DNA of 64,000 nt, taken from positions 1-64,000 of IMG/VR virus record IMGVR_UViG_3300008113_000144, one strand, 5' to 3'. The notes beneath the pieces are model-generated. The model was not told the origin of the DNA, searched no databases, and worked only from the letters and a program-made list of their open reading frames with translations. Position 1 is the first letter of the stretch; every line of letters starts with the position of its first letter. The stretch is from a virus. Positions 1 through 53,754 of this stretch are shown here, one piece after another. Both the position numbers and the translations under genes were made by a program.

Positions 1-3000
1 AACAGCAGGTAGAGAATTAAGATTTCCAGCAGCAATAGCGGTAGTAGCAATAGCAATAAGAGTGCCGATGCTATTACGAACATCAATACAAGAATCTGGG
101 TTATTGTTATTGTTCAATTCTCCCTGAACACCATAACCAAATTCTGTTGGAAGATAACCTGGATTTGGATCTCCAGTGATAGTTAAATCTCTTACGTTTA
201 GCTGGTTGGTTACAGCTAATCTCATTACATCTCTAGCCTTATTAAAGGCAGTGATCGACTGAGAAGTTTCGCCAACTAATCCATTTGAAAGTGGAATTGT
301 GTTGGTTAAGAAATATCTCTTGGTAGCTCTAATTGTATTCTTATTACCACCATCATAAAGGTCAGAAGCAACAGCGTCAACAATATAACCAATATCTCTA
401 CGACACTTGCTTTCTCCAGCAAAATAAGTCGTAGCAGTCTCAGCAGGTAGACCAGTTAGATTACCAGCACTAATTCTATCGGTGATGAGTGTGGTGAAGT
501 TGGTGATTGCTGTTTGAACATCCGAGCAAGCAGCAGGATCTGTATTAGCTACATTTCCACCGCCACCACCATACGTAGCAGGACCAGTGCTGACAGTGAG
601 ATCCTTATAATATAGACCGTTGTAAACGGCTAGCTTCATCATGTCTCTTGCTTTGTTGAAAGCAACGACAGACTGAGCAGTTTCTCCAACTAGACCATCG
701 ACAATTGGAGTGCCGTTGTTAAAATACTGAAGAACAAATTGTCTGGAATACTTATTGCTTCCAGAGAAAAGGTCTAGAGAAATAGCATCAACGAAGTAAC
801 CAATATCTCTACGGCACTTGAGATTACCACTTGCTTTTCTTACAGCAGGAAGACCTGATGTATTACCAGCTTGAAGTGTGGAAGTTAGGATAGCAATTAG
901 GTTGCTAACAGCAGTTCTAACATTAGCACATGAAGCTTCACTAATATTAGATAGAGTATCAGGATCTGCTGTAATGGTTGTATCCTTAACATATAGCTGA
1001 TTTGTTAAGGCTTTGTTCATCCAGTCTCTTGCTTTGTTGAAAGCAACAACAGACTGTGATACTTCGCCAGCTAATCCATTTGTTAATAGAGTAGTAGCAT
1101 TTTCAAAGTATCTGAGTGTGTAATCAATAGTTCTTGAATTACCACCTGTTTGAATATCGTAAGCAATGGCATCAACAATATATCCAATATCTCTACGGCA
1201 CTTAGCTTCTCCAGCAGGAGTTACACTAGCACCTGTGGTGATTGTTGGTAAAACGTTAGCTCCATTGATATTTCCAGCAAGTAATCTGGTTTGAGCAATG
1301 GTTGCTAAAGTTTCTACTGCTGTTTGTACATCAATACAAGAAGCGGCATTTCCTGATTGTAAAACAGCAATGTTAGGACCAGCAACACCATAAGAAGCAG
1401 GACCAGCGGTTATAGTGAGATCCTTAATATAAAGCTGATTGGTTACAGCTTTCTTCATCATATCTACTGCTGTTGTAAAAGCAGTATCAGCTTCTGATTC
1501 TTCACCAGATAACCCGTTAGTAATCTTAATGCCAGTTTCTGGATTAAAGTATTGCTTAGTAAATCCTACAGTAAACTGGTTGCCTCCATCGTAAATGTCT
1601 AAAGAAATAGCATCGATGAAGTAACCAATATCACGCTTACACTTAGCTTCTCCAGCAGTTACAAAACTATCTCCTGTAGTTGGTGTTGGAAGAGCATTAG
1701 CGCCATTAATATTACCAGCAGTGATTCTGCTTGTAATTAGAGTAGTGAGTGTTTGTAGAGCGGTTTGAACATCAGAACAAGCAGTTGGATCTGTATTAGA
1801 AACAGAACCTCCACCTCCACCGTAATTAGTTGGACCAGCAGTTACACTAAGATCTGTATATGCTAATTGATTTGTAACAGCAAGACGGCATTGCTCTGTC
1901 GCTTCATTGAAAGCAAAAACTGATTGGGCAGTTTCTCCAACTAAACCATTGGAAATAGCTAATCCACTTCCATCAAAGTATAGTTTTGTGAAAGCAATAG
2001 AATACTGGTTTCCGCCAGTTGCCATGTCAAGAGAAATAGCATCAACGAAGTAACCGATATCACGCTTACACTTAGCATTATCTCCTCCAGGAACAGTAAA
2101 TCCAGGATATTGTGCTTGCATTGAAGCAAAAGCAGCATCAATAATAGCACTTCTGTTCTTTTGAATTAGACGATAACCATCTTTAAATCTTGATCTGGCG
2201 TTGGTTTGAGCATCTCCAGGGTAATAAAAATCTGGATAATCTACAGCAATTTGAGCAGCAGCTCTATCAATAATTTCTTGACGATTCTGTTGAATTAGTC
2301 TGTAGCCATCTTTAAATCTTGATCTTGGACCAGTTTGTGGATCATTTGGATAGTAGAAATCAGGGAACTGAATAGCAATTTCAGCAGCAGCTCTTACCTT
2401 AATCTCTTCTTTGTTTGCCTTAATTAGATTAGCAGCATCATAGTATCTGCTCTGGTAATCTCTATTTACGTTTGGAAGACCAGTTAGATTACCAGCATTT
2501 AATCTAGTAGTGATGATTGATGTTAGGTTGGAAATATATGTTTGAACATCAGAACAAGCAGTTGGGTCAGTGTTAGCTACTGTAGCTCCACCAGAAGCAT
2601 AGATTGCAGAACCAGCAGTTACACTAGTATCAGTTACACCAAGTTGGTTAGCAACTGCTTTTCTCATTTCATCTCTTGCTGAATTAAAAGCAAGAACTGA
2701 TTGAGAAATTTCTCCAGCTAAACCATTAGTTGTTAGATTTCCTGAATTGTCAAAATATTGCTTGAGGAAATTGATGCTATTTGAGTTTCCACCGAGGAAA
2801 ACGTCAAGAGAAACAGCATCAATAAAATAACCAATATCACGTTTACACTTAGTACCATCTGGATCTGCTGGAATAGAACCACCAGAAGCAGTGTAAGCAG
2901 TATCAATGATAGCAGTTTTGTTTTGCTGAATTAAACGATAAGCATCAGCATAACGTGAACGCTCATTAGTTTGTAAATCGCCAGGATAATAGAAATCAGG

Positions 3001-5916
3001 ATACTGTACAGCAATCTCAGCAGCGGCTGTATCAATAATAGTTTCCTTATTCTTTTGAATTAGGCGATAAGCATCGTTGTATCTGCTTTGAGCGTTAGTT
3101 TGAGTATCACCAGGATAATAGAAATCTGGATGATCTACGGCAACTGCTGCTAAAGCACGATCAAGAATTTCTTCTCTGTTAGCTTTGATTAGATTTGTTG
3201 AATCCTTGTATCTAGCAGCAGAAGCATTAGGACTGATAAAGAGTTCTGGGTAAGCATCTTCAATGTATCTTGAAGTCTCTTGCTTGATAAACTCTTGGTT
3301 TCTAGCGATAAGATAGCTAGCCTCAATAAATCTATCAGTTTGATTATTAGAAATAATAGCAATGAAGAGATTTGCTAAGTTATTAATAGCAGCTTCTACG
3401 TTAGCACAATATGGCCAAACTGAATCAATTGTTACATCTGGATCATAGTATCTAGAAATATTAGAAAATTGTGGAGCATATAAATCGCCAGCTTGATTAA
3501 TTCTCCATCCTCTCATGGCGAGGACAGCTAAATTTCTAGCAATATCAAATGCTCTAATTGTTTCTGAAAGCTCCGTAGCAATATAACCAATACCAGTGCC
3601 TAGAACGTAATACTTAGCAGCTTCAATGGTGTTATGGTTTCCACCATATTCCATATCACGAACGATAGCACTCACAAAGTGACCGATATCTCTAATACAC
3701 TTTGCTTCGTTTGGATTTGTGAATTCTGGGAACTCAGCAATTACCTGCTTATAAGTTTCATCCTTGATAAACTCAAGATTATTTTTAATTAGATTTCTAG
3801 CATCTTGATATCTTCTAGAAATATAAGGAGTAGCTTCAAACTTGTTTGGTGAGTTTAAAAGAGATAGAGTTACATAATATGATACAGGAGAAACTGTAGC
3901 GTTTGCTGGAGTGTAATTGCTATCAGTAAACGAAGTCATGTTATCTTTAGGGATAACAAATCTTCTTGATCGGGAGTCGTCGTCAATCAGTACACCAACT
4001 TTATCTAAATCATAAATTCTTTGAATACCATTAAGGTTAGCTAATTCTGTTGGAAGACCAGAAATAAGAACTTCCTGACCTTCATGGAAATCATGAATAT
4101 TATCTACACCTTGAAGTTGATTTGTGTAGAAAATAATGCCACCAACTTGAGCTTGCTGAGAAGCATCAATTCTTACGATTGGGAAAGTTGTTGTGGTGTC
4201 TGTACCATGCTCTACAACTTCGCCTTCTGGTCTAATAGAAGAAAGGTCTACAATTGTAAATGTAAATTCTTCTGCCCAGTTAGAGCCATTCCAAGTATAA
4301 GTAATGCCATCATTTGGGTGAACAAAAGTATCTCCAATTGATGGCGAAGATGGCCAACCAGTATATTCTACAGGAGCTTCAATATAATAACGAGCACTTT
4401 CACCTTCAGCAAATACACCAATAGTAGCTTCAAAATCTATAAAGCCTTTTTGGTATGCTGTTGGTCCTGTAGTAGAATCAAAACTTACAACTTTAACAGA
4501 ACCAATAGCACTAGTATTAACACCATTAATCGTTTCACCAACAACTAACTTGTTGCCTCCAGCGTTAAAATCAAATACTGCTCTGAAAAGTGTTTTACCA
4601 AAGATTTGATGGCCAATTGGAAATCTTCTCTTGAAGTCTCCGCCATATGTTGGATCATAATATAATCTTTGCTTATCATCAAATACACAAGCAAAATTCC
4701 ATGTTGAAACTGGATTACCTAAAGTATCTAGTTTATCCCTAAACACCATACCAGTGATATAGTTTTTATCGGCAAACTTAAATACATGTTTACCAGGATT
4801 ATTTGGTCTTACAATTACAATTCTTAGCGAGTCACCAACAACCGAACAATCAGGTGGAATAGAAATTGGGTTATCTTCTACATAGTCACCACCAGCAATG
4901 ATAACTGTTTCTTTTACATTTCTTGATTCTGTAGCAATTTGACAACCACGCTTGATTGTTCTTACTGGAGAAGCAACAGATCTACCGTCATTTTCATCAT
5001 CACCAATTTGCTGAGATACGTAAACACGACCACCAACGTCGTTTGTAGCGAGGTTTAATACGTATTCGGTAGTAGCAATCTTGTTGGAGTTATCTCCTAG
5101 GGGAGGAGTAATAGATCTTGGCCAAGAAAGTTGACCAAAATATGGTTGGTTTGAATCATTTACACGAAAACCAACATGTTCTAATTCAACTGTACCATTA
5201 GTTACTATGCCACTGGTATGTAAAGGTGGATTACTTCCAGTAATACCAGTATTTTTTGCTCTATATAAGTTACCTTCATAATAACGAATAGAATTTTTCG
5301 TTAACGAAACGTTTGAAACCCAAACTTGTTCCGAGTTATTATCGAATAATTTTAATGAAGGTGCTCTAATAGCAAGATCGGCTGTTACAAAATTCTCTAG
5401 ATCTAGATTGAGAATTCTAGCAGTATCAGAAATAATAGATGAAGAAGTTCTAATAGCACCATTAACATCAATTTCGTAATCAATGGTATCTAATGTACAA
5501 GTTGCTACAGCACCACCGCCTGTAGTATCTCCTTCCGCATTTTGAATCGTAATTGAAGGTGGGGTAATATAACCAGATCCTGGGTTTGAAATAATAACTG
5601 CTATTACTCTTCCATTTGATAAAATTGTGCTAGCAGTAGCTTGAATAGAACCAATTCCAGCGGGAGGTGGATCTATAATTACCAATGGTGGTGTAGTATA
5701 TCCAGAACCCTGAGCTGTTACGTTAATATTATCTACACGACTTCCTGTTCTATTGACACCAATTCTCGGTAACTTGGTAGTTGGATCAATTAAAGCTCTA
5801 AATACTTCTTTTTCATCAGATCCTTGACCTGATCTAATGATAAAATTATCGCTACCAATAATATTAGGCGAATCAGATTTGATATATTGCTTATCAGAAT
5901 TAAATTCTAATCCCAT
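1..5916 (-). CDS. Giant virion structural protein (3'-truncated by window edge); DUF1565/pectin-lyase-like beta-helix start plus nested phycobiliprotein-like repeats
   Basis: ATG at 5916 (MGLEFNSDKQYIKSD...); hand-translated segments stay in one frame to position 1 (...AAGNLNSLPAV). Late promoter ATAAATA at 5966-5972. VYVSQQIGDDENDGRSVASPVRTIKRG...AGGDYVEDNPISIPPDCSVVGDSLR near 5030-4830. Seven KCxRDIG(Y/H) repeats. Confidence 0.9.
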   Translation of the reverse strand, partial: MGLEFNSDKQYIKSDSPNIIGSDNFIIRSGQGSDEKEVFRALIDPTTKLPRIGVNRTGSRVDNINVTAQGSGYTTPPLVIIDPPPAGIGSIQATASTILSNGRVIAVIISNPGSGYITPPSITIQNAEGDTTGGGAVATCTLDTIDYEIDVNGAIRTSSSIISDTARILNLDLENFVTADLAIRAPSLKLFDNNSEQVWVSNVSLTKNSIRYYEGNLYRAKNTGITGSNPPLHTSGIVTNGTVELEHVGFRVNDSNQPYFGQLSWPRSITPPLGDNSNKIATTEYVLNLATNDVGGRVYVSQQIGDDENDGRSVASPVRTIKRGCQIATESRNVKETVIIAGGDYVEDNPISIPPDCSVVGDSLRIVIVRPNNPGKHVFKFADKNYITGMVFRDKLDTLGNPVSTWNFACVFDDKQRLYYDPTYGGDFKRRFPIGHQIFGKTLFRAVFDFNAGGNKLVVGETINGVNTSAIGSVKVVSFDSTTGPTAYQKGFIDFEATIGVFAEGESARYYIEAPVEYTGWPSSPSIGDTFVHPNDGITYTWNGSNWAEEFTFTIVDLSSIRPEGEVVEHGTDTTTTFPIVRIDASQQAQVGGIIFYTNQLQGVDNIHDFHEGQEVLISGLPTELANLNGIQRIYDLDKVGVLIDDDSRSRRFVIPKDNMTSFTDSNYTPANATVSPVSYYVTLSLLNSPNKFEATPYISRRYQDARNLIKNNLEFIKDETYKQVIAEFPEFTNPNEAKCIRDIGHFVSAIVRDMEYGGNHNTIEAAKYYVLGTGIGYIATELSETIRAFDIARNLAVLAMRGWRINQAGDLYAPQFSNISRYYDPDVTIDSVWPYCANVEAAINNLANLFIAIISNNQTDRFIEASYLIARNQEFIKQETSRYIEDAYPELFISPNASAARYKDSTNLIKANREEILDRALAAVAVDHPDFYYPGDTQTNAQSRYNDAYRLIQKNKETIIDTAAAEIAVQYPDFYYPGDLQTNERSRYADAYRLIQQNKTAIIDTAYTASGGSIPADPDGTKCKRDIGYFIDAVSLDVFLGGNSNSINFLKQYFDNSGNLTTNGLAGEISQSVLAFNSARDEMRKAVANQLGVTDTSVTAGSAIYASGGATVANTDPTACSDVQTYISNLTSIITTRLNAGNLTGLPNVNRDYQSRYYDAANLIKANKEEIKVRAAAEIAIQFPDFYYPNDPQTGPRSRFKDGYRLIQQNRQEIIDRAAAQIAVDYPDFYYPGDAQTNARSRFKDGYRLIQKNRSAIIDAAFASMQAQYPGFTVPGGDNAKCKRDIGYFVDAISLDMATGGNQYSIAFTKLYFDGSGLAISNGLVGETAQSVFAFNEATEQCRLAVTNQLAYTDLSVTAGPTNYGGGGGSVSNTDPTACSDVQTALQTLTTLITSRITAGNINGANALPTPTTGDSFVTAGEAKCKRDIGYFIDAISLDIYDGGNQFTVGFTKQYFNPETGIKITNGLSGEESEADTAFTTAVDMMKKAVTNQLYIKDLTITAGPASYGVAGPNIAVLQSGNAASCIDVQTAVETLATIAQTRLLAGNINGANVLPTITTGASVTPAGEAKCRRDIGYIVDAIAYDIQTGGNSRTIDYTLRYFENATTLLTNGLAGEVSQSVVAFNKARDWMNKALTNQLYVKDTTITADPDTLSNISEASCANVRTAVSNLIAILTSTLQAGNTSGLPAVRKASGNLKCRRDIGYFVDAISLDLFSGSNKYSRQFVLQYFNNGTPIVDGLVGETAQSVVAFNKARDMMKLAVYNGLYYKDLTVSTGPATYGGGGGNVANTDPAACSDVQTAITNFTTLITDRISAGNLTGLPAETATTYFAGESKCRRDIGYIVDAVASDLYDGGNKNTIRATKRYFLTNTIPLSNGLVGETSQSITAFNKARDVMRLAVTNQLNVRDLTITGDPNPGYLPTEFGYGVQGELNNNNNPDSCIDVRNSIGTLIAIATTAIAAGNLNSLPAV

Positions 5917-6493: not shown

Positions 6494-9400
6494 TTATCTA
6501 ATAAAGGTTTTTAAAATAGTAAATTCTATACTAGAACCGCTAGAAACGGAGCTATCTAATGTAGTTGTTAAACGAACATCTCCGTTTGAATCAAAATCAA
6601 AAGTAGCATCATATAAAAGATTTCCTGAAAGCAAGCTTTCATATTCTATGTTATATATGTTTGCTCCATTAGCAATAATATTATAATCAACCATATGCTT
6701 TTCGTATGTTGACAAATCAACAGCAATAATAGTCAATTTACAAGCAGATGCTAAATTAGGATCATACAATACATAAGAATTGAAATTAGTTGTATCTTTA
6801 ACTAAAGTAAATTTATTAGTTTCTAATACAGCATTAGCAAGTCCAAAATAAGTTAAAGTTCTATCTAAAACTTTCTCTCCTGTATAAGAACCTTCAGTAA
6901 AAGTTTTATTTACATAGATATCACCAGTAGCACTTAATCTTAATAAAGCGTCATTAGTAAGACCAGATTTTAATCCGATATCTAAATTATTTTTACCAGA
7001 ATAAAGCTTTGTTATTGTAGAACTCGTTGAATCGATACCAAAAGTATCACTAGAATATCTAACTCCATCAACATTAATGTTTAAGATATTATTGTTTGAT
7101 GTGATAGTATTAGCAGTCTGGAATGTTAATGATGTTTTTGTTACACGTAAAGTATTATCACCATCATTATAGAAGTATAAAATATTCTCATTAGCTCCAG
7201 ATGAAGATTCTGGAATAATATAAGTATTTCCATCTACGTCTCTAACGCCACCAAGACTTGTCCAAGCAGTGCCGTTGTATCCTTCATACTGAGTTGTAGC
7301 AGTATTAAATCTTACAGCTCCAGCTTCAGCAATACCTCTGTTTAGATTATTTCCCACAGGAAGAACAAATGAAGTAGTTGAATTTACTTTGACTAATTTT
7401 CCTGAGAATGGAGTAATAGTAATGTCTTCTGTTACGCTAGAAATATCACTATTAATAATTTTTAGTTTATTATTTACATTAAGTACACTATTAATATTAA
7501 CATTATTAATATTAGTAAATGTTAAATTACCATAGATTGTTCTGATGTATTCATAATTATTTGTAGTACCAGAAGTATGAGTAGGACCAGAACCACCAGA
7601 AGTTAAATTGGTAGTTATTTTGTATACGTTAGTTCCATTATGTACTAAATCGTCTTGCTCATATGTTGTAGCTGGCTCCCATTTCAAAACTCCTACCAAA
7701 TCAATAGATGAAATTGTATTAGCTGATCTAAATTCTAATTTATCTTGATCTAATTGTAGGGTATTAACCCCGTTGTTGTAGAAATACAGAATATTTTCAT
7801 TGGATCCAGCAGAAAGTTCGGGAATAATATAAGTATTTCCATCAACATCTCTTACTCCACCTAAGCTACTCCAAGCGTTTAAACCATAACCTTCAAATTG
7901 CTGGTTGCTAGTGTTAAATCTGATAGCGCCAGTTGTAGCAGAACCTCTTTGTCCAGTTGAACCAGTGGGAATAACCAAAGAAGTTTGAGCATCAACAACT
8001 ACGTTAGTTCCTGTAGAAGGTTTAATAGTTAACCCAGATAATCTAGTTTCTATTAAATTAGGAGAAAAGGTTAAATTTTGATCTATACTTAACGAAGTAT
8101 TTTTTACAACAAGCGAACCATTCGTGGAAACTAAAGAATTAATACTTTCAAAAACTAGATCTGTTGTAGTAATTTTTAAAGTATTGCTATTATTATTGTA
8201 AAAATAAAATATATTGTCATTGGCTCCTACTGTAGCTTCAGCAAGTAGGAAAGTATTTCCATCAGTGTCTCTAACACTTCCTAAACTAGACCAAACGTTT
8301 GTGTCTCCATCATAACCCTCAAATTGTCTTGTGTCTGTATTAAATCTAATAGCTCCAGTTTCAGCATCTAATTGTGGTCTCTGTACTTGAGTTCCTACTG
8401 GTACAATAAGTGCTCTATTAGAATCAATTTTTATATTTTTTCCTGGAAATGGCTTTAAAATTAGTGGATTTTCTAATAACGATGAAATTGTATTATCTAC
8501 AATTGTAGTAATATCATTAACGTTTAAACCATCAAGACATTTAACTTCGCCATTAGTAGTTATATTTCCGTTTGAAGATTCTATTGATAAAGTAATTGTA
8601 TTACTATTATCAAAAATATTAACTCTATTTGTACCGATATTAATATCATTAACAACATCAAACTCTAAAATATTTGATGCTGATAATTTTGGAGTCGAAA
8701 TATTTGTACTGGCTGTTAGATTGTCTGTTGTAATAAAGTCTGAATTAATATCATCAATAAAACCAAGTTGTCCTGTAAATGATACTGCTTCGACATCTCC
8801 TGTCAAAACCTCTACTTTTACAGGAGATGTTACAGATATTCCAGTTGATGTAAATGAGAACCCGCTACCGTCACTTGTATCTACAATAGTATAAGTTGCT
8901 TGATCTGGAGTATTATTGACGCCCGATACAGTAATTACATCGCCTACACCATAACCTGTTCCAGGATCATTTACTTGTATATTAGTAATGTTACCACCAC
9001 TAATATCAGTAACTACAACTGTGGCAGTACCATTTCCAATGGTAATTAAATCGTTTATTGAATATCCAGATCCAGGAGTATTAATTGATGCGGAAGTTAT
9101 CTCGCCACCAGTTACTCCAGATACAGTAAATTGACCACCTGTGCCATTTGGAATAGTTAATACATCACCAATTTGATAATTTTGACCACCATTTACAATA
9201 TTAATTCCAGTAATAGATCCACCCAAAATAGATGTTACTGTTACTGTGCCTCCAGTACCACCATCAATGGTTAAAATATCATTTACTTGATACTCAATTC
9301 CCCCCGAATTAATAATAACTGAAGAAATCGCTCCCCCAGGAGTAACCGAAGATATAGATAATCTAGCATCATCTGGCGCTGGTAGTCCAGTCTCTGGATC

Positions 9401-10627
9401 TAATGCCTGAGAACCAGGAATAGATACAGTTTCTCCTTGAACATATCCACTACCACCAGAATTTAAAGTTATATTTGATAGAGTTCCTCCAGCATCAACC
9501 ACAAAATTAACAGTTAAACCAACCCCAGTTGACGTAACATTTATGGGACTTGTTGGTTGATTTGTATATGTTCCTGGAGTGTAAACGCTACCAACACTAT
9601 CTACAGTAAAAGCAGAAACAACATTTTGAGGTCCTGCTACAATATCTACCGTAGCTCCATTACCAAATCCACCGCTTAAAGTTGTGGTTGATGTAGTGTA
9701 CCCAGAACCAACCGAAGTTAAACTAAGTTGATTGATTTCTCCAGCATTTATTACAGAAATTGAAACTGATGCTCCAGTTCCATTTCCTCCTGTAGGACTA
9801 TAAACTCCATCAAAATAATTAGACCCAGAAATTATATTTTCTACAGTTCCAATAATACCTCCCGTTGAGGCAACAATATCTAAAGTAAGACCAGAACCTA
9901 ATCCACCAGTAGTAGATACGTTCTGTGTAGTAACATATCCTTCTGTTCCATTTAAAAATCCAATCTGTTCAGGAACTCCATTTACTGAAGCAGTAATATC
10001 TACTGTTAGACCAGTTCCAGATCCGCCAGTTGTAGGTACATCTAAACCAGAAACATAAGTTTGTCCACCGTTTATTAAAGTTAACCCGACTACTCTTCCT
10101 GTGGGATCATTTGATATTTCTTGAGGAGCAACAGTTAGATCATCTCCAACTACATAGCTATATCCCCCATCCGTAATAACTACATCAGAAACCGAACCAT
10201 TAGAATCGACAGTAATAGTAGCTTTTGCTGCTGTGCCAGTTCCACCTAAAACATTTATGTTTGTGTAAACACCTTCAGCATATCCAGTTCCGCCACTAGT
10301 GATTGTTATATTTTGGGTTGATAAAGATCTTTTTTCTGTATATAAATTTTGAGCAAAATAAGATCCAGTAGGAGACAAAGATAAAACAGGCTTTCCTCCA
10401 CTAGCAAACCCTAATCTTTGAGCACCATCTTTATAAATTCCTAAAGTTACATCTGTTTCAAATGTAAACGATGGCGAAACCAAAGATCCATCAGCGTATT
10501 CTGTTTTGAGAACAGTAATACTCGATTCACCTGAAGTAAAATCATATACATCTTGAGCAATTAAATTAATTTTTTGCCTTTGAATTTCAAATGTGTCTGT
10601 TTTAGCAACGGATCTAAGAACTGCCAT
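6494..10627 (-). CDS. Tail fibre / baseplate-associated fibre protein
   Basis: N-terminal TDTFEIQRQKIN typical of cyanomyovirus fibres; Gly/Thr-rich GGxGY repeats; three GA(I/V)RFNT...EGY...WxSLGxVRDxDGNT repeats. Confidence 0.8.
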   Translation of the reverse strand: MAVLRSVAKTDTFEIQRQKINLIAQDVYDFTSGESSITVLKTEYADGSLVSPSFTFETDVTLGIYKDGAQRLGFASGGKPVLSLSPTGSYFAQNLYTEKRSLSTQNITITSGGTGYAEGVYTNINVLGGTGTAAKATITVDSNGSVSDVVITDGGYSYVVGDDLTVAPQEISNDPTGRVVGLTLINGGQTYVSGLDVPTTGGSGTGLTVDITASVNGVPEQIGFLNGTEGYVTTQNVSTTGGLGSGLTLDIVASTGGIIGTVENIISGSNYFDGVYSPTGGNGTGASVSISVINAGEINQLSLTSVGSGYTTSTTTLSGGFGNGATVDIVAGPQNVVSAFTVDSVGSVYTPGTYTNQPTSPINVTSTGVGLTVNFVVDAGGTLSNITLNSGGSGYVQGETVSIPGSQALDPETGLPAPDDARLSISSVTPGGAISSVIINSGGIEYQVNDILTIDGGTGGTVTVTSILGGSITGINIVNGGQNYQIGDVLTIPNGTGGQFTVSGVTGGEITSASINTPGSGYSINDLITIGNGTATVVVTDISGGNITNIQVNDPGTGYGVGDVITVSGVNNTPDQATYTIVDTSDGSGFSFTSTGISVTSPVKVEVLTGDVEAVSFTGQLGFIDDINSDFITTDNLTASTNISTPKLSASNILEFDVVNDINIGTNRVNIFDNSNTITLSIESSNGNITTNGEVKCLDGLNVNDITTIVDNTISSLLENPLILKPFPGKNIKIDSNRALIVPVGTQVQRPQLDAETGAIRFNTDTRQFEGYDGDTNVWSSLGSVRDTDGNTFLLAEATVGANDNIFYFYNNNSNTLKITTTDLVFESINSLVSTNGSLVVKNTSLSIDQNLTFSPNLIETRLSGLTIKPSTGTNVVVDAQTSLVIPTGSTGQRGSATTGAIRFNTSNQQFEGYGLNAWSSLGGVRDVDGNTYIIPELSAGSNENILYFYNNGVNTLQLDQDKLEFRSANTISSIDLVGVLKWEPATTYEQDDLVHNGTNVYKITTNLTSGGSGPTHTSGTTNNYEYIRTIYGNLTFTNINNVNINSVLNVNNKLKIINSDISSVTEDITITPFSGKLVKVNSTTSFVLPVGNNLNRGIAEAGAVRFNTATTQYEGYNGTAWTSLGGVRDVDGNTYIIPESSSGANENILYFYNDGDNTLRVTKTSLTFQTANTITSNNNILNINVDGVRYSSDTFGIDSTSSTITKLYSGKNNLDIGLKSGLTNDALLRLSATGDIYVNKTFTEGSYTGEKVLDRTLTYFGLANAVLETNKFTLVKDTTNFNSYVLYDPNLASACKLTIIAVDLSTYEKHMVDYNIIANGANIYNIEYESLLSGNLLYDATFDFDSNGDVRLTTTLDSSVSSGSSIEFTILKTFIR

Positions 10628-13800: not shown

Positions 13801-16800
13801 ATGAAACGGTATCAGGATTTCCAGTCCAACGGCTATTCTCTGTTGGAGCTTTGCCAGCTGGAATAAGAATGATACCACTCAAATTACCATTTGAATCAGT
13901 AACTAAAGGAGAATTAAATGTCGATAAAGAGTTTGCTGGAACACCAGTAAATCTAGTATCAGGAACAACCCATCTACCAATATCTCTATTGTCCATAAAC
14001 ACAAATACTTTAGTATTTGGTTTTAGTCTATTGATTACAAATTTAACTGGAATCGATCTGGCAAAGAATTGTAACTCTGTTGAAACATTTAATTCATTTA
14101 CTGATTTTGTGTTAACACCTTTCGCCAGTTCATTATTTTGTGGACTAACGTTAGAAGAGCTAGCAACTAAAGCATTAGTAACAGAAGATTGAATTTCTTC
14201 ACTGTTAATGTTAGCAAGAGATTCAATATTGTAGAAAGATCTATTAGTTCCTGTCCAGTTTACAATGAAAGAATTATGTAAGCTAGCAAAAGATTCTTTA
14301 ACATCATCCTTAGCTAAGAAGATAGTATTTAATTTTGTGTTTGTGTCATTAACTAAAGGAGCAACAGTAGTATCATACCATTGGTCTATTGTGGGACTTA
14401 GTGATCCTTCACCAACATATTGAATAACTACAAATGGATTTGGATTTAAAGTTTTTGTAGCATTATCATTGCCCAAGAACTTCAAGCTTTTGAATGGAAG
14501 AGTAATTACTCCATTATTATTAACATAACCAGCAACGCTTCTTTGATCTTCTCTGGTATTAACTTCAACTAAAGTAAACGAATCTTCTTTTGTTTGTGGT
14601 CTTAATACGGCTTGCTGAGAATCAATAGCACACTTATAATCGATAGAAGCTAAATTGCCAATCCTATGAGCTTCAAAATTATCTACGATAAATCCACTCT
14701 TGAATCTATCAAGACCGATTTCGTCCTTGACTTGCATGTTTAATGCTTGCTGCTCAAGAATACTTAGAGTAGTGTAATATTCTAGTCTTTCAATTCTCTT
14801 TTCAAGCTTACCAATGTCCTTCATTGTGTAACGCTTGTTATTTACAGGAATAATTCTTACGTCTTTGCTGTTGTTTGTGTACGCTGGAATGTGTAAATAA
14901 CATAAAGCAATAGCATCATCAACAGGATCTGGTTTAGATGGGTTCTGTGATGAGTTACCTTCCTTGACAATAAAATCACCTTTCTTAGTTAAGAATACTC
15001 CATCAATACGATCTAGGTACTGAGTTTCTGTAAATGAGACAGTATATTCTAAATTGGAATCTGAGGCAGGAGTTAGAGAAGTAACTCCACCAGAACCAAC
15101 AAAGTTTACATAATCTCTACCATTTGGATTAGCTAAAATAGAAATGTCTTGGAAGCCAGTAACTGTAGTTTCGCTATCTACCTTTGGTCTAAAATCAATA
15201 GCATCTTTGAGAGAAATAACTCCATTAACTGATGAGTTAAACAAAGGTATCTCATCTACAGTAACGCCAGCTTCGTGAAGATAAGAATCAACTGTACAGA
15301 AATCTCCTTGAGAATGTTCAAAATAATCAAAAGCAACTACTAGTTGTCCTGATGGTGGATCAAATCCAGGCTTTAATACTATTCTTGAAACATCATAGAA
15401 AGTATCACGTTGACCGTCATCAAAAGTAAACTTATAGGTAATGTCAGTACCGCTGACTAAATTACCGTTAGCATCTACGTTAGGTGGATTAGTAGTTGTT
15501 CCTTCATAAACATATCTTAATCTATAAGCATCTGAATACGAGAATGTTTCGATAGTTTCTCCATCATAATCTTGACCACGTAGAGGGATAACTCTATCTC
15601 CACTGGAGATTACAACAATTCTCTTATTTTTGATAGATGTCTTTAATCTAGGTCTTGCTTTATCAATTTCGATGGTAGCAGTTAGCTTTAATTTAGGGAA
15701 CGTGCCGCCTAAAGGAATATCACCGAAATAATTTGTTGGTAAGTTGATTAAAAATGCTCCAGCAGATACTTGATTAGCAGTAATTTCTGACTGAATAATA
15801 GTTACGTTGTCTGGAGAAATATAAACAATATCACCATTATTGACTGTTGTAGAAGATCCTTTATCTAATACAGTTAAAATATAATTGTTTTCACTAAAGC
15901 TTACAAATCTTTGAGTACCAACTGGGAGTTGAGCAGTAAATGTAATATTTCCACCACTTGAAGACAGATCAGTGATAAAATCTTTTCTTACATAATACTT
16001 GAATTTGGTATCACTAGTATCCTTAATTAACGAACCAACTTGCTTAGATCCTGTTGGGAAAACTAAAGTAGAGCTGTTAGCATTTTGAATGTTTGGTCTT
16101 AATCTAATAATAGAAGCATTACTAATATCATCAGGTAAAGCATAATCCAAATAAATTCTCGATTTAATAATTCCCTCTGGATCAGTAACTGATTGTACAA
16201 TGTTTCTAATAACGTTATTGTTGACATCAGTAAATTGAATTAGATCGCCTTGAACTAAATCTTTAGATAGATTAGCTCCAAAACCATTACATTCAACATA
16301 CTTTCTTCCTCTGTAACCAAAGAAAGTAAAATCAGTTACCTGTGAGTAAGTAGAATACTCTGTACTTGATACATCAATATCAGCAGTAAACTTGTAGTTA
16401 TTATAAGTCGATGAGAAAGACTTGATGTTTTGTGGAGTATATGTTAATACAGAATTTTTATTTAATACAGGAACAACTGTAGCAGCATTTGTTGAAATAG
16501 ATGGAGCTGGTGTAACTGTTACTGTGGGAGGAGAAGAATAAACGGAAGACAATCCGTTTCTATCAACAATAGAAACTGAATATAATGTTCCTCCATACTC
16601 TTTTACTGATACTTTAGACTGATCAATTTCTTGACCATTGACTACAATTTTAGAAGTAGAAGGATATGAGTTTCCTCCATTTGTAACAATGAAATGAGAA
16701 ATGGTATTATCTTTAGCAATCTTGATGGCATTTCCATCTTCATCTAAAATTGTTTCTCCAGAAACAAATGTTCCAGATAAAGTGGTTACGAATAAAGTGT

Positions 16801-52379: not shown

Positions 52380-53754
52380 AATCTAAATGATGTATTGTGT
52401 CTGTTTTGTATTCTGGTTGTTTAAATGGCAGCACAGTTGATGAAGTATTCCAAGTGTGATCTTTGGCAGCTATTGTGTGCATAAACATAATATAATCATC
52501 ATGATCCATATAATAATCTCCAAGGAGATTTATAATATGTTCTTGGTAATCATATTTTATGTTTTTATGATCTATCCAAAAACGAGTATCATCTCGTTGA
52601 CACGTTTTATATTGAGTTAAAATGAATGCTGCCCAAAATTTGTATCTACTTTCAATTCTATCATTAATAACTTGTCTCAAACTATTTACAACATTTTTAT
52701 CTGGAATATCTTTCCATTGTTGTAAAATAGGTTTTAAATGATTAATGACATCAATTGTTAATGTTAGACCAGGAGCATCTAGTGGTTCTAGAAATCCATT
52801 AGCCAAACCCAGAGTACAGTAATTTTCATGATATGTTTTTTTATTATATCGAGGATAAAAATTGACAAGCCTTGGTTCTATATCTACACCAACGTCATTA
52901 ATAAATTCTTGCCTAGCTCTATCTTCACTGATATAGTTGGAGCTGAATGTATATCCTGTACCAATTCTTGAATAAGTTGGCGTTATCCATCTCCATCCAT
53001 ACTTCATAGTTTTTGCTACTGTGTATGGATGAAATTGATTTCTTTTATCAGTATATTCTAGTGGATATACAAAAGCTTTATTTGTTAACAATACATCAGA
53101 CAAATCTACATATTCTTCATTCAGAATATCATTGTAACCAGTGGCAACAATATAGTAATCTGCTGTGATTACAGTACCTTTATCAGTAATAAGTCTTTCG
53201 ATCTTATCATCTATTTTTTCTACTTTATCAATAGTTTCTGCTAGTGTAGAAACATGTTTATGTTTTTTACAGTGCTTAGAAATAAACTCAATATATTTGC
53301 CAGCATCAAAATGCCATGATTTTGGGTAAAAGAAATCTGATTTGAATACCTGATTATCTTTTATAGCATCGTTCAAGTTACAAGCAATTAGATCATTTAT
53401 AGAAACATCCTTTGGCTTGTTTGCCAAAAGCCTATAAAACATGGTCGTATGAATGCTCATAGCATTCGATGATCTATTATTTTTAAAATTGTGAATAAAA
53501 TTATTTTTAGACCAATTCTTATAATAGACACCATATTTTATAGCGGCATCTGATTCAGTGACAAAAATATCCTGATTTATTCCAACTTCTTGGTGGAAAT
53601 CATTTAACTTAATTGTATTAGATTCTCCAACACCAATACTAGGAATGTGTGGAGAACCTACAATTACAATTTCTTTAAAAAACTCTTTTTTCATCGCCAT
53701 GGCAGCACAAGCCATCCAGCCTGCTGCCCCAGTTCCAACAATACAGAGTTTCAT
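52336..53754 (-). CDS. Flavin-dependent (tryptophan-halogenase family) halogenase
   Basis: IVGTGAAGW, IGVGES, DAAIKYGV (catalytic Lys position), WHFDA, GWRWITP, GFLEPL. Confidence 0.9.
   Translation of the reverse strand: MKLCIVGTGAAGWMACAAMAMKKEFFKEIVIVGSPHIPSIGVGESNTIKLNDFHQEVGINQDIFVTESDAAIKYGVYYKNWSKNNFIHNFKNNRSSNAMSIHTTMFYRLLANKPKDVSINDLIACNLNDAIKDNQVFKSDFFYPKSWHFDAGKYIEFISKHCKKHKHVSTLAETIDKVEKIDDKIERLITDKGTVITADYYIVATGYNDILNEEYVDLSDVLLTNKAFVYPLEYTDKRNQFHPYTVAKTMKYGWRWITPTYSRIGTGYTFSSNYISEDRARQEFINDVGVDIEPRLVNFYPRYNKKTYHENYCTLGLANGFLEPLDAPGLTLTIDVINHLKPILQQWKDIPDKNVVNSLRQVINDRIESRYKFWAAFILTQYKTCQRDDTRFWIDHKNIKYDYQEHIINLLGDYYMDHDDYIMFMHTIAAKDHTWNTSSTVLPFKQPEYKTDTIHHLDYVEAIRNKVSRIRS

Follow-up and report, generated by a model that had tools for sequence, protein, structure and literature searches.

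The window analysed here, 64,000 nucleotides in length, covers the opening 64 kb of a viral contig of 92,980 bp (IMG/VR record IMGVR_UViG_3300008113_000144), and its left end is occupied by an open reading frame on the minus strand that runs from 5916 to 1 and continues off the contig end. Nothing left of position 1 exists in the record, the remaining 3' portion of this gene was not found at the opposite contig end when the contig was checked for circularity, and 1,972 amino acids (aa) of the protein are present. By best matches, the contig belongs to a T4-like cyanomyovirus (340 phage records, nearly all from Synechococcus or Prochlorococcus phages, with S-PM2 at the top). The gene order is shared with S-PM2p091, S-WAM2 gp162, and S-RIM32 gp148, which are annotated as 'tail fiber protein' and have lengths of 3,219-3,496 aa. 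The protein matches tail-fibre PHROGs, and its sequence suggests a giant fibre- or tailspike-type virion protein with an expected full length of ~3,900 aa. Its middle part consists of split copies of a phycobiliprotein-fold domain, and we propose that seven of eight copies are nested within one another, up to six deep, to form a forked arm within one chain.

The repeats are of two kinds, namely A, the N-half of the domain, which recurs with a 43-aa period, and B, the C-half, which starts with KCxRD. One intact domain (AB) is followed by AAAAB AAAB BBBB (7 A and 6 B) and then by the contig end. The Arg codons of the A motif lie at 3813 (intact unit), 3333, 3213, 3084, 2955, 2448, 2319, and 2190, and the KCxRD starts at 3702 (intact unit), 2850, 2073, 1644, 1203, 819, and 408. 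This order and the A starts had been reported in a first-pass annotation of the window made from the letters alone, and all of them were confirmed in a motif scan and with hidden Markov models (HMMs) built from the units. Each A was recovered with an E-value of 1e-19 to 1e-25 and each B with one of 1e-47 to 1e-64, so the repeat pattern is not due to chance. The parts of the gene are as follows, with the proposed partners and the evidence for each unit.

3817..5916, minus strand: N-terminal 700 aa of the fibre protein, matching phrog_5342 ('tail fiber protein') over residues 1-514
3709..3816, minus strand: A0, N-half (two helices) of the intact contiguous domain D0 (A-HMM, E 1.4e-21)
3337..3702, minus strand: B0, C-half of the intact D0, starting KCIRD (B-HMM, E 1.2e-47)
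3229..3336, minus strand: A1, outermost N-half, depth 1, most divergent A; its proposed partner B7 would lie past the contig end (HMM)
3109..3216, minus strand: A2, N-half, depth 2, proposed partner B6 (HMM, compatibility score)
2980..3087, minus strand: A3, N-half, depth 3, proposed partner B5; putative fork domain with two inserts in its loop (HMM, compatibility score)
2851..2958, minus strand: A4, N-half of the putative short branch, depth 4, contiguous with B1 (HMM)
2467..2850, minus strand: B1, C-half, contiguous partner of A4 (B-HMM, E 1.7e-63)
2344..2451, minus strand: A5, N-half of the putative long branch, depth 4, proposed partner B4 (HMM, AlphaFold2 and globin alignments over model residues 1..531, compatibility score)
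2215..2322, minus strand: A6, N-half, depth 5, proposed partner B3 (HMM, AlphaFold2, compatibility score)
2086..2193, minus strand: A7, N-half, depth 6, innermost turn, contiguous with B2 (HMM, fold match)
1690..2073, minus strand: B2, C-half, contiguous partner of A7 (phycobiliprotein chains align on A7+B2, Z 15-17)
1252..1644, minus strand: B3, C-half, proposed partner A6 (HMM, AlphaFold2, compatibility score)
841..1203, minus strand: B4, C-half, proposed partner A5 (HMM, AlphaFold2, globin alignments, compatibility score)
442..819, minus strand: B5, C-half, proposed partner A3 (HMM, compatibility score)
1..408, minus strand: B6, C-half, proposed partner A2, ending exactly at the contig end (HMM, compatibility score)

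A scan of viral contigs yielded six relatives that were 82-94% identical to the window protein. Four of them (L011, L012, L014, and L016; 92-94% identical) contain 3,918-aa frames with the order AB AAAAB AAAB BBBBBB (8 A and 8 B), in which exactly one B lies beyond the point where the window ends, followed by non-repeat, beta-helix-like sequence; an HMM scan of the remaining ~1,800 aa of these frames detected no further unit. A single additional B had been predicted from the window alone, and the prediction came true in these four relatives, not on this contig itself. L015 (90-93% identical) presented the same order, its apparent nine B being explained by one B with an internal deletion; this unit, B6, has lost 79 columns and retains HMM positions 1-24 and 92-128, so that L015:6332-9322 represents a natural variant in which one domain is damaged and the rest of the arm is identical. 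The order in L013 (82% identical) was AB AAAAABB AAA BBBBBB (9 A and 9 B). Compared with the window, this protein has one additional A (43 aa) and one additional B (~142 aa), which lie side by side where the first branch makes its innermost turn.

The same regularity was found across a wider set of 171 sequences, comprising 120 database homologues, the window protein, and the open reading frames of 50 viral loci, which were scanned with iterated A and B HMMs; in calling the words, split B hits were merged and weak outermost A hits were allowed. Read as opening (A) and closing (B) brackets, 129 of the 171 sequences were balanced, and these represented 21 architectures with depths of up to 10, including A3B3, A4B4, A5B5, A6B6, A3B3A2B2, A4B4A3B3, A4B4A6B6, and A10B7A2B5. 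In all 21, branched ones included, the number of B counted from the start never exceeds that of A. The balance of A and B that had been claimed for the window thus extends to its homologues in both respects (equal counts and prefix rule), and the nesting depth among them ranges from 2 to 10. Cultured phages are balanced as well (AB AAAABBBB in S-PM2 and AB AAABBB in S-WAM2).

The unbalanced classes mostly contained half-B pieces or started at residue 1-5 of a cut protein. Three of them were rescued by a weak A (score ~7.5) just upstream of the first unit, and an apparent surplus of B elsewhere proved to be one B split by a 406-aa insert (P0005). Among the sequences composed of full units, only P0026 (A7B5A2B5, one sequence) and the truncated window protein were unbalanced. 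A second insertion site was observed inside B at HMM positions ~80-95 (P0005, P0013, and P0015; L017, L026, and L034). Many homologues end in a half B, followed by a long C-terminal region that looks like an insertion into the final domain. A three-symbol grammar (A, N-part of B, and C-part of B) was also tried and was rejected, as under it the last half-B of many proteins had no match.

The domain is a true, though distant, relative of the phycobiliproteins. The Pfam family PF00502 (Phycobilisome) matched the protein with an E-value of 6e-25 and 88.4 bits against a cut-off of 22.2; the best single stretch was 2005-2172 (26.8 bits, above the cut-off), which covers profile positions 36-97 only. 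A7+B2 aligned to residues 42-102 of C-phycocyanin alpha, and a profile of 29 contiguous domains, compared with PDB sequences, showed similarity to residues 39-104 of CpcA only. In these alignments, KCkRDIGYF faces KCaRDIGYY of CpcA, placing KCxRD on Cys84-Arg86-Asp87. The junction between A and B falls between 'FPY' and 'KC(A)RD' of C-phycocyanin alpha (residues ~62-82), which we take to be the B-E loop by textbook phycobiliprotein helix boundaries, in agreement with the insertion site proposed by the first-pass annotation. Among 690 unique B units, the Cys, Arg, and Asp of KCxRD were conserved in 99, 98, and 99%, respectively, and a second Cys at the start of the last helix in 98%. The second Cys would lie near phycobiliprotein chain residue 155, a position estimated from range end-points only, since the sequence alignments end at residue 104; the second bilin Cys of beta subunits is beta-153/155.

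AlphaFold2 was applied to the segment A5-A6-A7-B2-B3-B4 with an alignment of 20 sequences, and the resulting model was confident (predicted local distance difference test score, pLDDT, 86.5; predicted template modelling score, pTM, 0.88), with two helices in each A and four in each B. The phycobiliprotein fold of the inner domain, A7+B2, was clear from its match to phycocyanin and phycoerythrin beta chains (Z 15.4-17.0), in which chain residues 32-172 correspond to model residues 87-247, with a root-mean-square deviation of 2.0-2.5 Å over 133-142 residues in the tighter alignments. The units begin at about phycobiliprotein residue 32-39. In some alignments, chain residues 7..177 were matched to model residues 60..247, so that the second helix of A6 lies approximately where helix Y would lie. 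Many alignments paired phycobiliprotein beta chains from residue 1-7 on with the model from residues 60-62 on (second helix of A6, 60-87). Two globin chains gave alignments of 110 and 133 residues that span model residues 1..531 (Z 7.1 and 5.7), which implies that in the model A5 and the last helix of B4 must share one globin-sized unit, as expected if A5 pairs with B4.

Sequence comparison also points to particular partners. Among the units of L012, similarity is mirrored between the two halves: the greatest divergence is seen in A1 and B7, A2 is close to A5 while B6 is closest to B4, and A4 resembles A7 while B1 resembles B2, a pattern that joint duplication of nested partners would produce. 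We further scored residue compatibility between A and B with a model trained only on contiguous A-B domains and applied to non-contiguous units. The nested partner was ranked first at 36-41 of 75 positions, compared with 17 expected. When each class under test was excluded from the training set, the nested pairing outscored every other permutation in 12 of 17 classes; it ranked first of 120 permutations for the window architecture and first of 720 for L013. The signal is specific to the pairs. The couplings A11-B14, A12-B72, A7-B74, and A28-B53, which were present in contiguous domains, recurred in nested non-contiguous pairs (ranks 5, 2, 17, and 7 of 4480, respectively) and were absent when the partners were shifted by one. 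The pairs A6-B3, A5-B4, A3-B5, and A2-B6 named by the first-pass annotation, together with A1-B7, make up the best-scoring of all 120 pairings.

We favour a single-chain nested arm, with a probability of roughly 0.85. The middle of the protein would form an arm of globin-like phycobiliprotein-fold domains, each split at the B-E loop into an N-half of two helices (A) and a C-half of four (B). The polypeptide would pass outward through the N-halves, turn at a contiguous domain, and come back through the C-halves, each returning C-half completing the domain begun by its matching N-half. The predicted pairs are A7-B2, A6-B3, A5-B4, A4-B1, A3-B5, A2-B6, and A1-B7, which would give a stem of three domains (A1/B7, A2/B6, and A3/B5), a branch of one domain (A4B1), and a branch of three domains (A5/B4, A6/B3, and A7B2), with six levels in total. 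The loop of A3/B5 would then receive two inserts, A4B1 and A5..B4, and the arm would fork at this point. With both ends of the array brought together, the entire arm could sit as a loop insertion in its host scaffold, and its length would change only by matched steps of A plus B. Folding may proceed from the inside out. The recursive insertion and the branched chain of domains envisaged from the window alone are supported by the balance rule, the compatibility score, and the A5..B4 model.

Several observations weigh against this arrangement. The gene on this contig lacks B7, P0026 is unbalanced, and the many homologues that end in a half B imply a grammar richer than simple A and B. In a global covariation map, nested pairs could not be told apart from pairs shifted by one (r 0.30 versus 0.31 and 0.26); the distinction was drawn by the individual couplings and the permutation score only. 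A direct structural hint of an outer pairing comes solely from the two modest globin alignments, known by range end-points only, and a second fold comparison of the A5..B4 model listed alignments to the contiguous inner domain only and none on the outer pairs. AlphaFold2 applied to A2..B6 (1,074 residues, only 6 close sequences) gave a pLDDT of 30.7 and a pTM of 0.19, which leaves the putative fork and the A3-B5 and A2-B6 pairs without structural support; for these two pairs, the proposed pairing is drawn from the bracket grammar and the compatibility score.

Three other explanations were weighed against the nested arm. The outer A halves might complete the B halves of a neighbouring chain in a presumed trimer, as in three-dimensional domain swapping. 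The Peptidase_S74 domain of relatives (described below) does suggest a trimer, a closed swap likewise needs equal numbers of A and B, and sequence compatibility is blind to the difference between partners within a chain and identical partners in another chain. However, branched words such as AAAAB AAAB BBBBBB and A10B7A2B5 parse only as nesting within a single chain, and, reasoning from the words, an antiparallel swapped register would set A against A. The linkers from A to B at the turns are as short as that in a contiguous domain, and the model of the monomer was confident, so that we consider such swapping improbable. Still less probable, in our estimation, are two independent tandem arrays, that is, a rod of A hairpins and a series of self-sufficient, truncated globin-like B domains, with a full domain only where A adjoins B. 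The strict 43-aa period of the tandem A units and the short linkers between consecutive B units would suit such arrays, and the failed large model is neutral towards them. Independent arrays nevertheless offer no reason for equal numbers of A and B, which are found in every balanced architecture and change together in close relatives; the compatibility score selects nested partners, and the A5..B4 model, with its pTM of 0.88 and the alignments across 1..531, puts A5 with B4 in one globin-sized unit.

The possibility that an assembler scrambled or collapsed the repeats and that the bracket pattern is accidental can be practically dismissed. The contig does break within the repeat region, and the unbalanced P0026 could itself be a collapsed assembly, yet the same order was recovered in five independent contigs from different samples, and the cultured-phage genomes of S-PM2 and S-WAM2 are balanced as well.

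Additional evidence on the fibre came from the regions on either side of the arm. The N-terminal 700 aa matched no Pfam family at E ≤ 0.01. In the full-length, 94% identical relative L012, the C-terminal 1,797 aa (L012:12509-17899), which correspond to a part of the gene beyond the contig end in the window, contained a Peptidase_S74 domain (endosialidase chaperone; E 1.3e-19, residues 1705-1762 of this part) and no other Pfam match. Peptidase_S74 is an intramolecular chaperone typical of trimeric fibres and tailspikes. Its presence in the full-length relative suggests that there might be three such arms per fibre. The likeness to phage fibres and tailspikes with a C-terminal chaperone thus comprises Peptidase_S74 in a relative, the tail-fibre PHROGs, and the position shared with S-PM2p091. 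The arm may project from the fibre and contact the host. A homologue, S-PM2d088, gained mutations over long-term coexistence with its host (PMC9910659), which is consistent with, though no proof of, a host-contact role.

A second giant gene with the same units lies in the same record outside the window (G000:C1:81346-91863, minus strand, 3,506 aa), its unit order being AABB, then A plus a half-B, then AB. Nested phycobiliprotein-like domains thus occur in two fibre-type proteins of this phage. The neighbouring 1,377-aa gene (window 6494-10627, minus strand) had no Pfam match. Among the homologues, P0047 is a 1,435-aa partial protein whose source is labelled as a metagenome-assembled genome of 'Candidatus Nanopelagicaceae bacterium'; this source is probably a phage contig binned with the bacterium.

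The phycobiliproteins (CpcA/B, CpeA/B, ApcA/B, and cryptophyte beta chains) resemble the phage units in the PF00502 score, in the fold (Z 15-17), and in Cys84-Arg86-Asp87, whereas the phage units appear to lack an N-terminal X-Y hairpin of their own, which phycobiliproteins use for alpha-beta pairing, and are split, nested, and placed in a putative virion protein. The phycobiliprotein domain of ApcE, the core-membrane linker, likewise accommodates a large insert between helices B and E, presumably in the same B-E loop, and matched the AlphaFold2 model at Z 12.5-13.9; its chain ranges exceeded the aligned length by ~70 residues. In ApcE, however, the insert is a single non-globin loop, whereas the phage loop takes up the domain itself again, recursively and in one or several additional copies.

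A targeted literature search whose coverage did not extend to all journals turned up no account of cyanophage fibres with phycobiliprotein-like or nested domains, and a side arm of nested globin-fold domains has, to our knowledge, been described for no fibre. The closest parallel is the Si3 insertion of the cyanobacterial RNA polymerase beta' subunit (RpoC2), in which hybrid-motif domains are nested up to six levels in an A1-B1-C-B2-A2 pattern, with bifurcating and multi-insert nodes; in a survey of 2.7 million classified domains, this six-level nesting was the highlighted example of complex nesting (PMC13114784). Si3 forms an elongated appendage within a loop of its host (PMC10895346). The two systems share same-fold copies inside copies and a single host domain with several inserts, and our parse of the window likewise gives discontinuous domains that would enclose complete ones, with a predicted depth of 6 and a fork at depth 3. 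They differ in fold, which is a beta sandwich-barrel hybrid in Si3 and an all-helical, globin-like phycobiliprotein in the phage, and in host, which is the polymerase trigger loop in one and a fibre in the other. In contrast to Si3, the depth in the phage proteins varies from 2 to 10 among relatives, always by matched halves. Recursive self-insertion of domains is rare, and here the same logic is found with a different, all-helical fold and reaches ten levels in relatives. Because the numbers of A and B must change together, the balance rule provides a strict, testable constraint on the evolution of a repeat protein.

Every B unit keeps the Cys-x-Arg-Asp motif of the bilin site and the second Cys (99 and 98% of 690 units, respectively), and it is conceivable, though in our view unlikely, that the nested domains bind bilin, giving a pigmented virion arm that might act as a light sensor or antenna gating adsorption. 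In a relative genome of 190,248 bp (G001, 98% complete), we found one clear gene of the CpeT family (T-type lyase, 133 bits) and a second, much weaker CpeT-like frame (two half matches, 28 and 23 bits), at 14624-15124 and 53278-53697; neither adjoins the fibre gene, and no bilin reductase was found in this genome. Neither CpeT nor a bilin reductase was found in the present 93-kb record, which is 48% complete. The CpeT family serves beta-Cys153 and, among cyanophages, is restricted to myoviruses (PMC10452541). The adsorption of some cyanomyoviruses is light-dependent and independent of host photosynthesis (PMC6628666), and the bilin genes of phages are unexplained (PMC3037559). If the arm did bind bilin, it would give these genes a role.

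Overall, a fibre of abundant marine cyanophages, presumably part of the virion, contains a relative of the host's antenna protein in which the residues of the pigment site are conserved. The giant proteins annotated as 'hypothetical' or 'tail fiber' in the 340 phage records can now be parsed domain by domain, and the kept pigment-site residues make an old puzzle testable, namely that of the phage bilin genes and of the light requirement for adsorption in some cyanophages.

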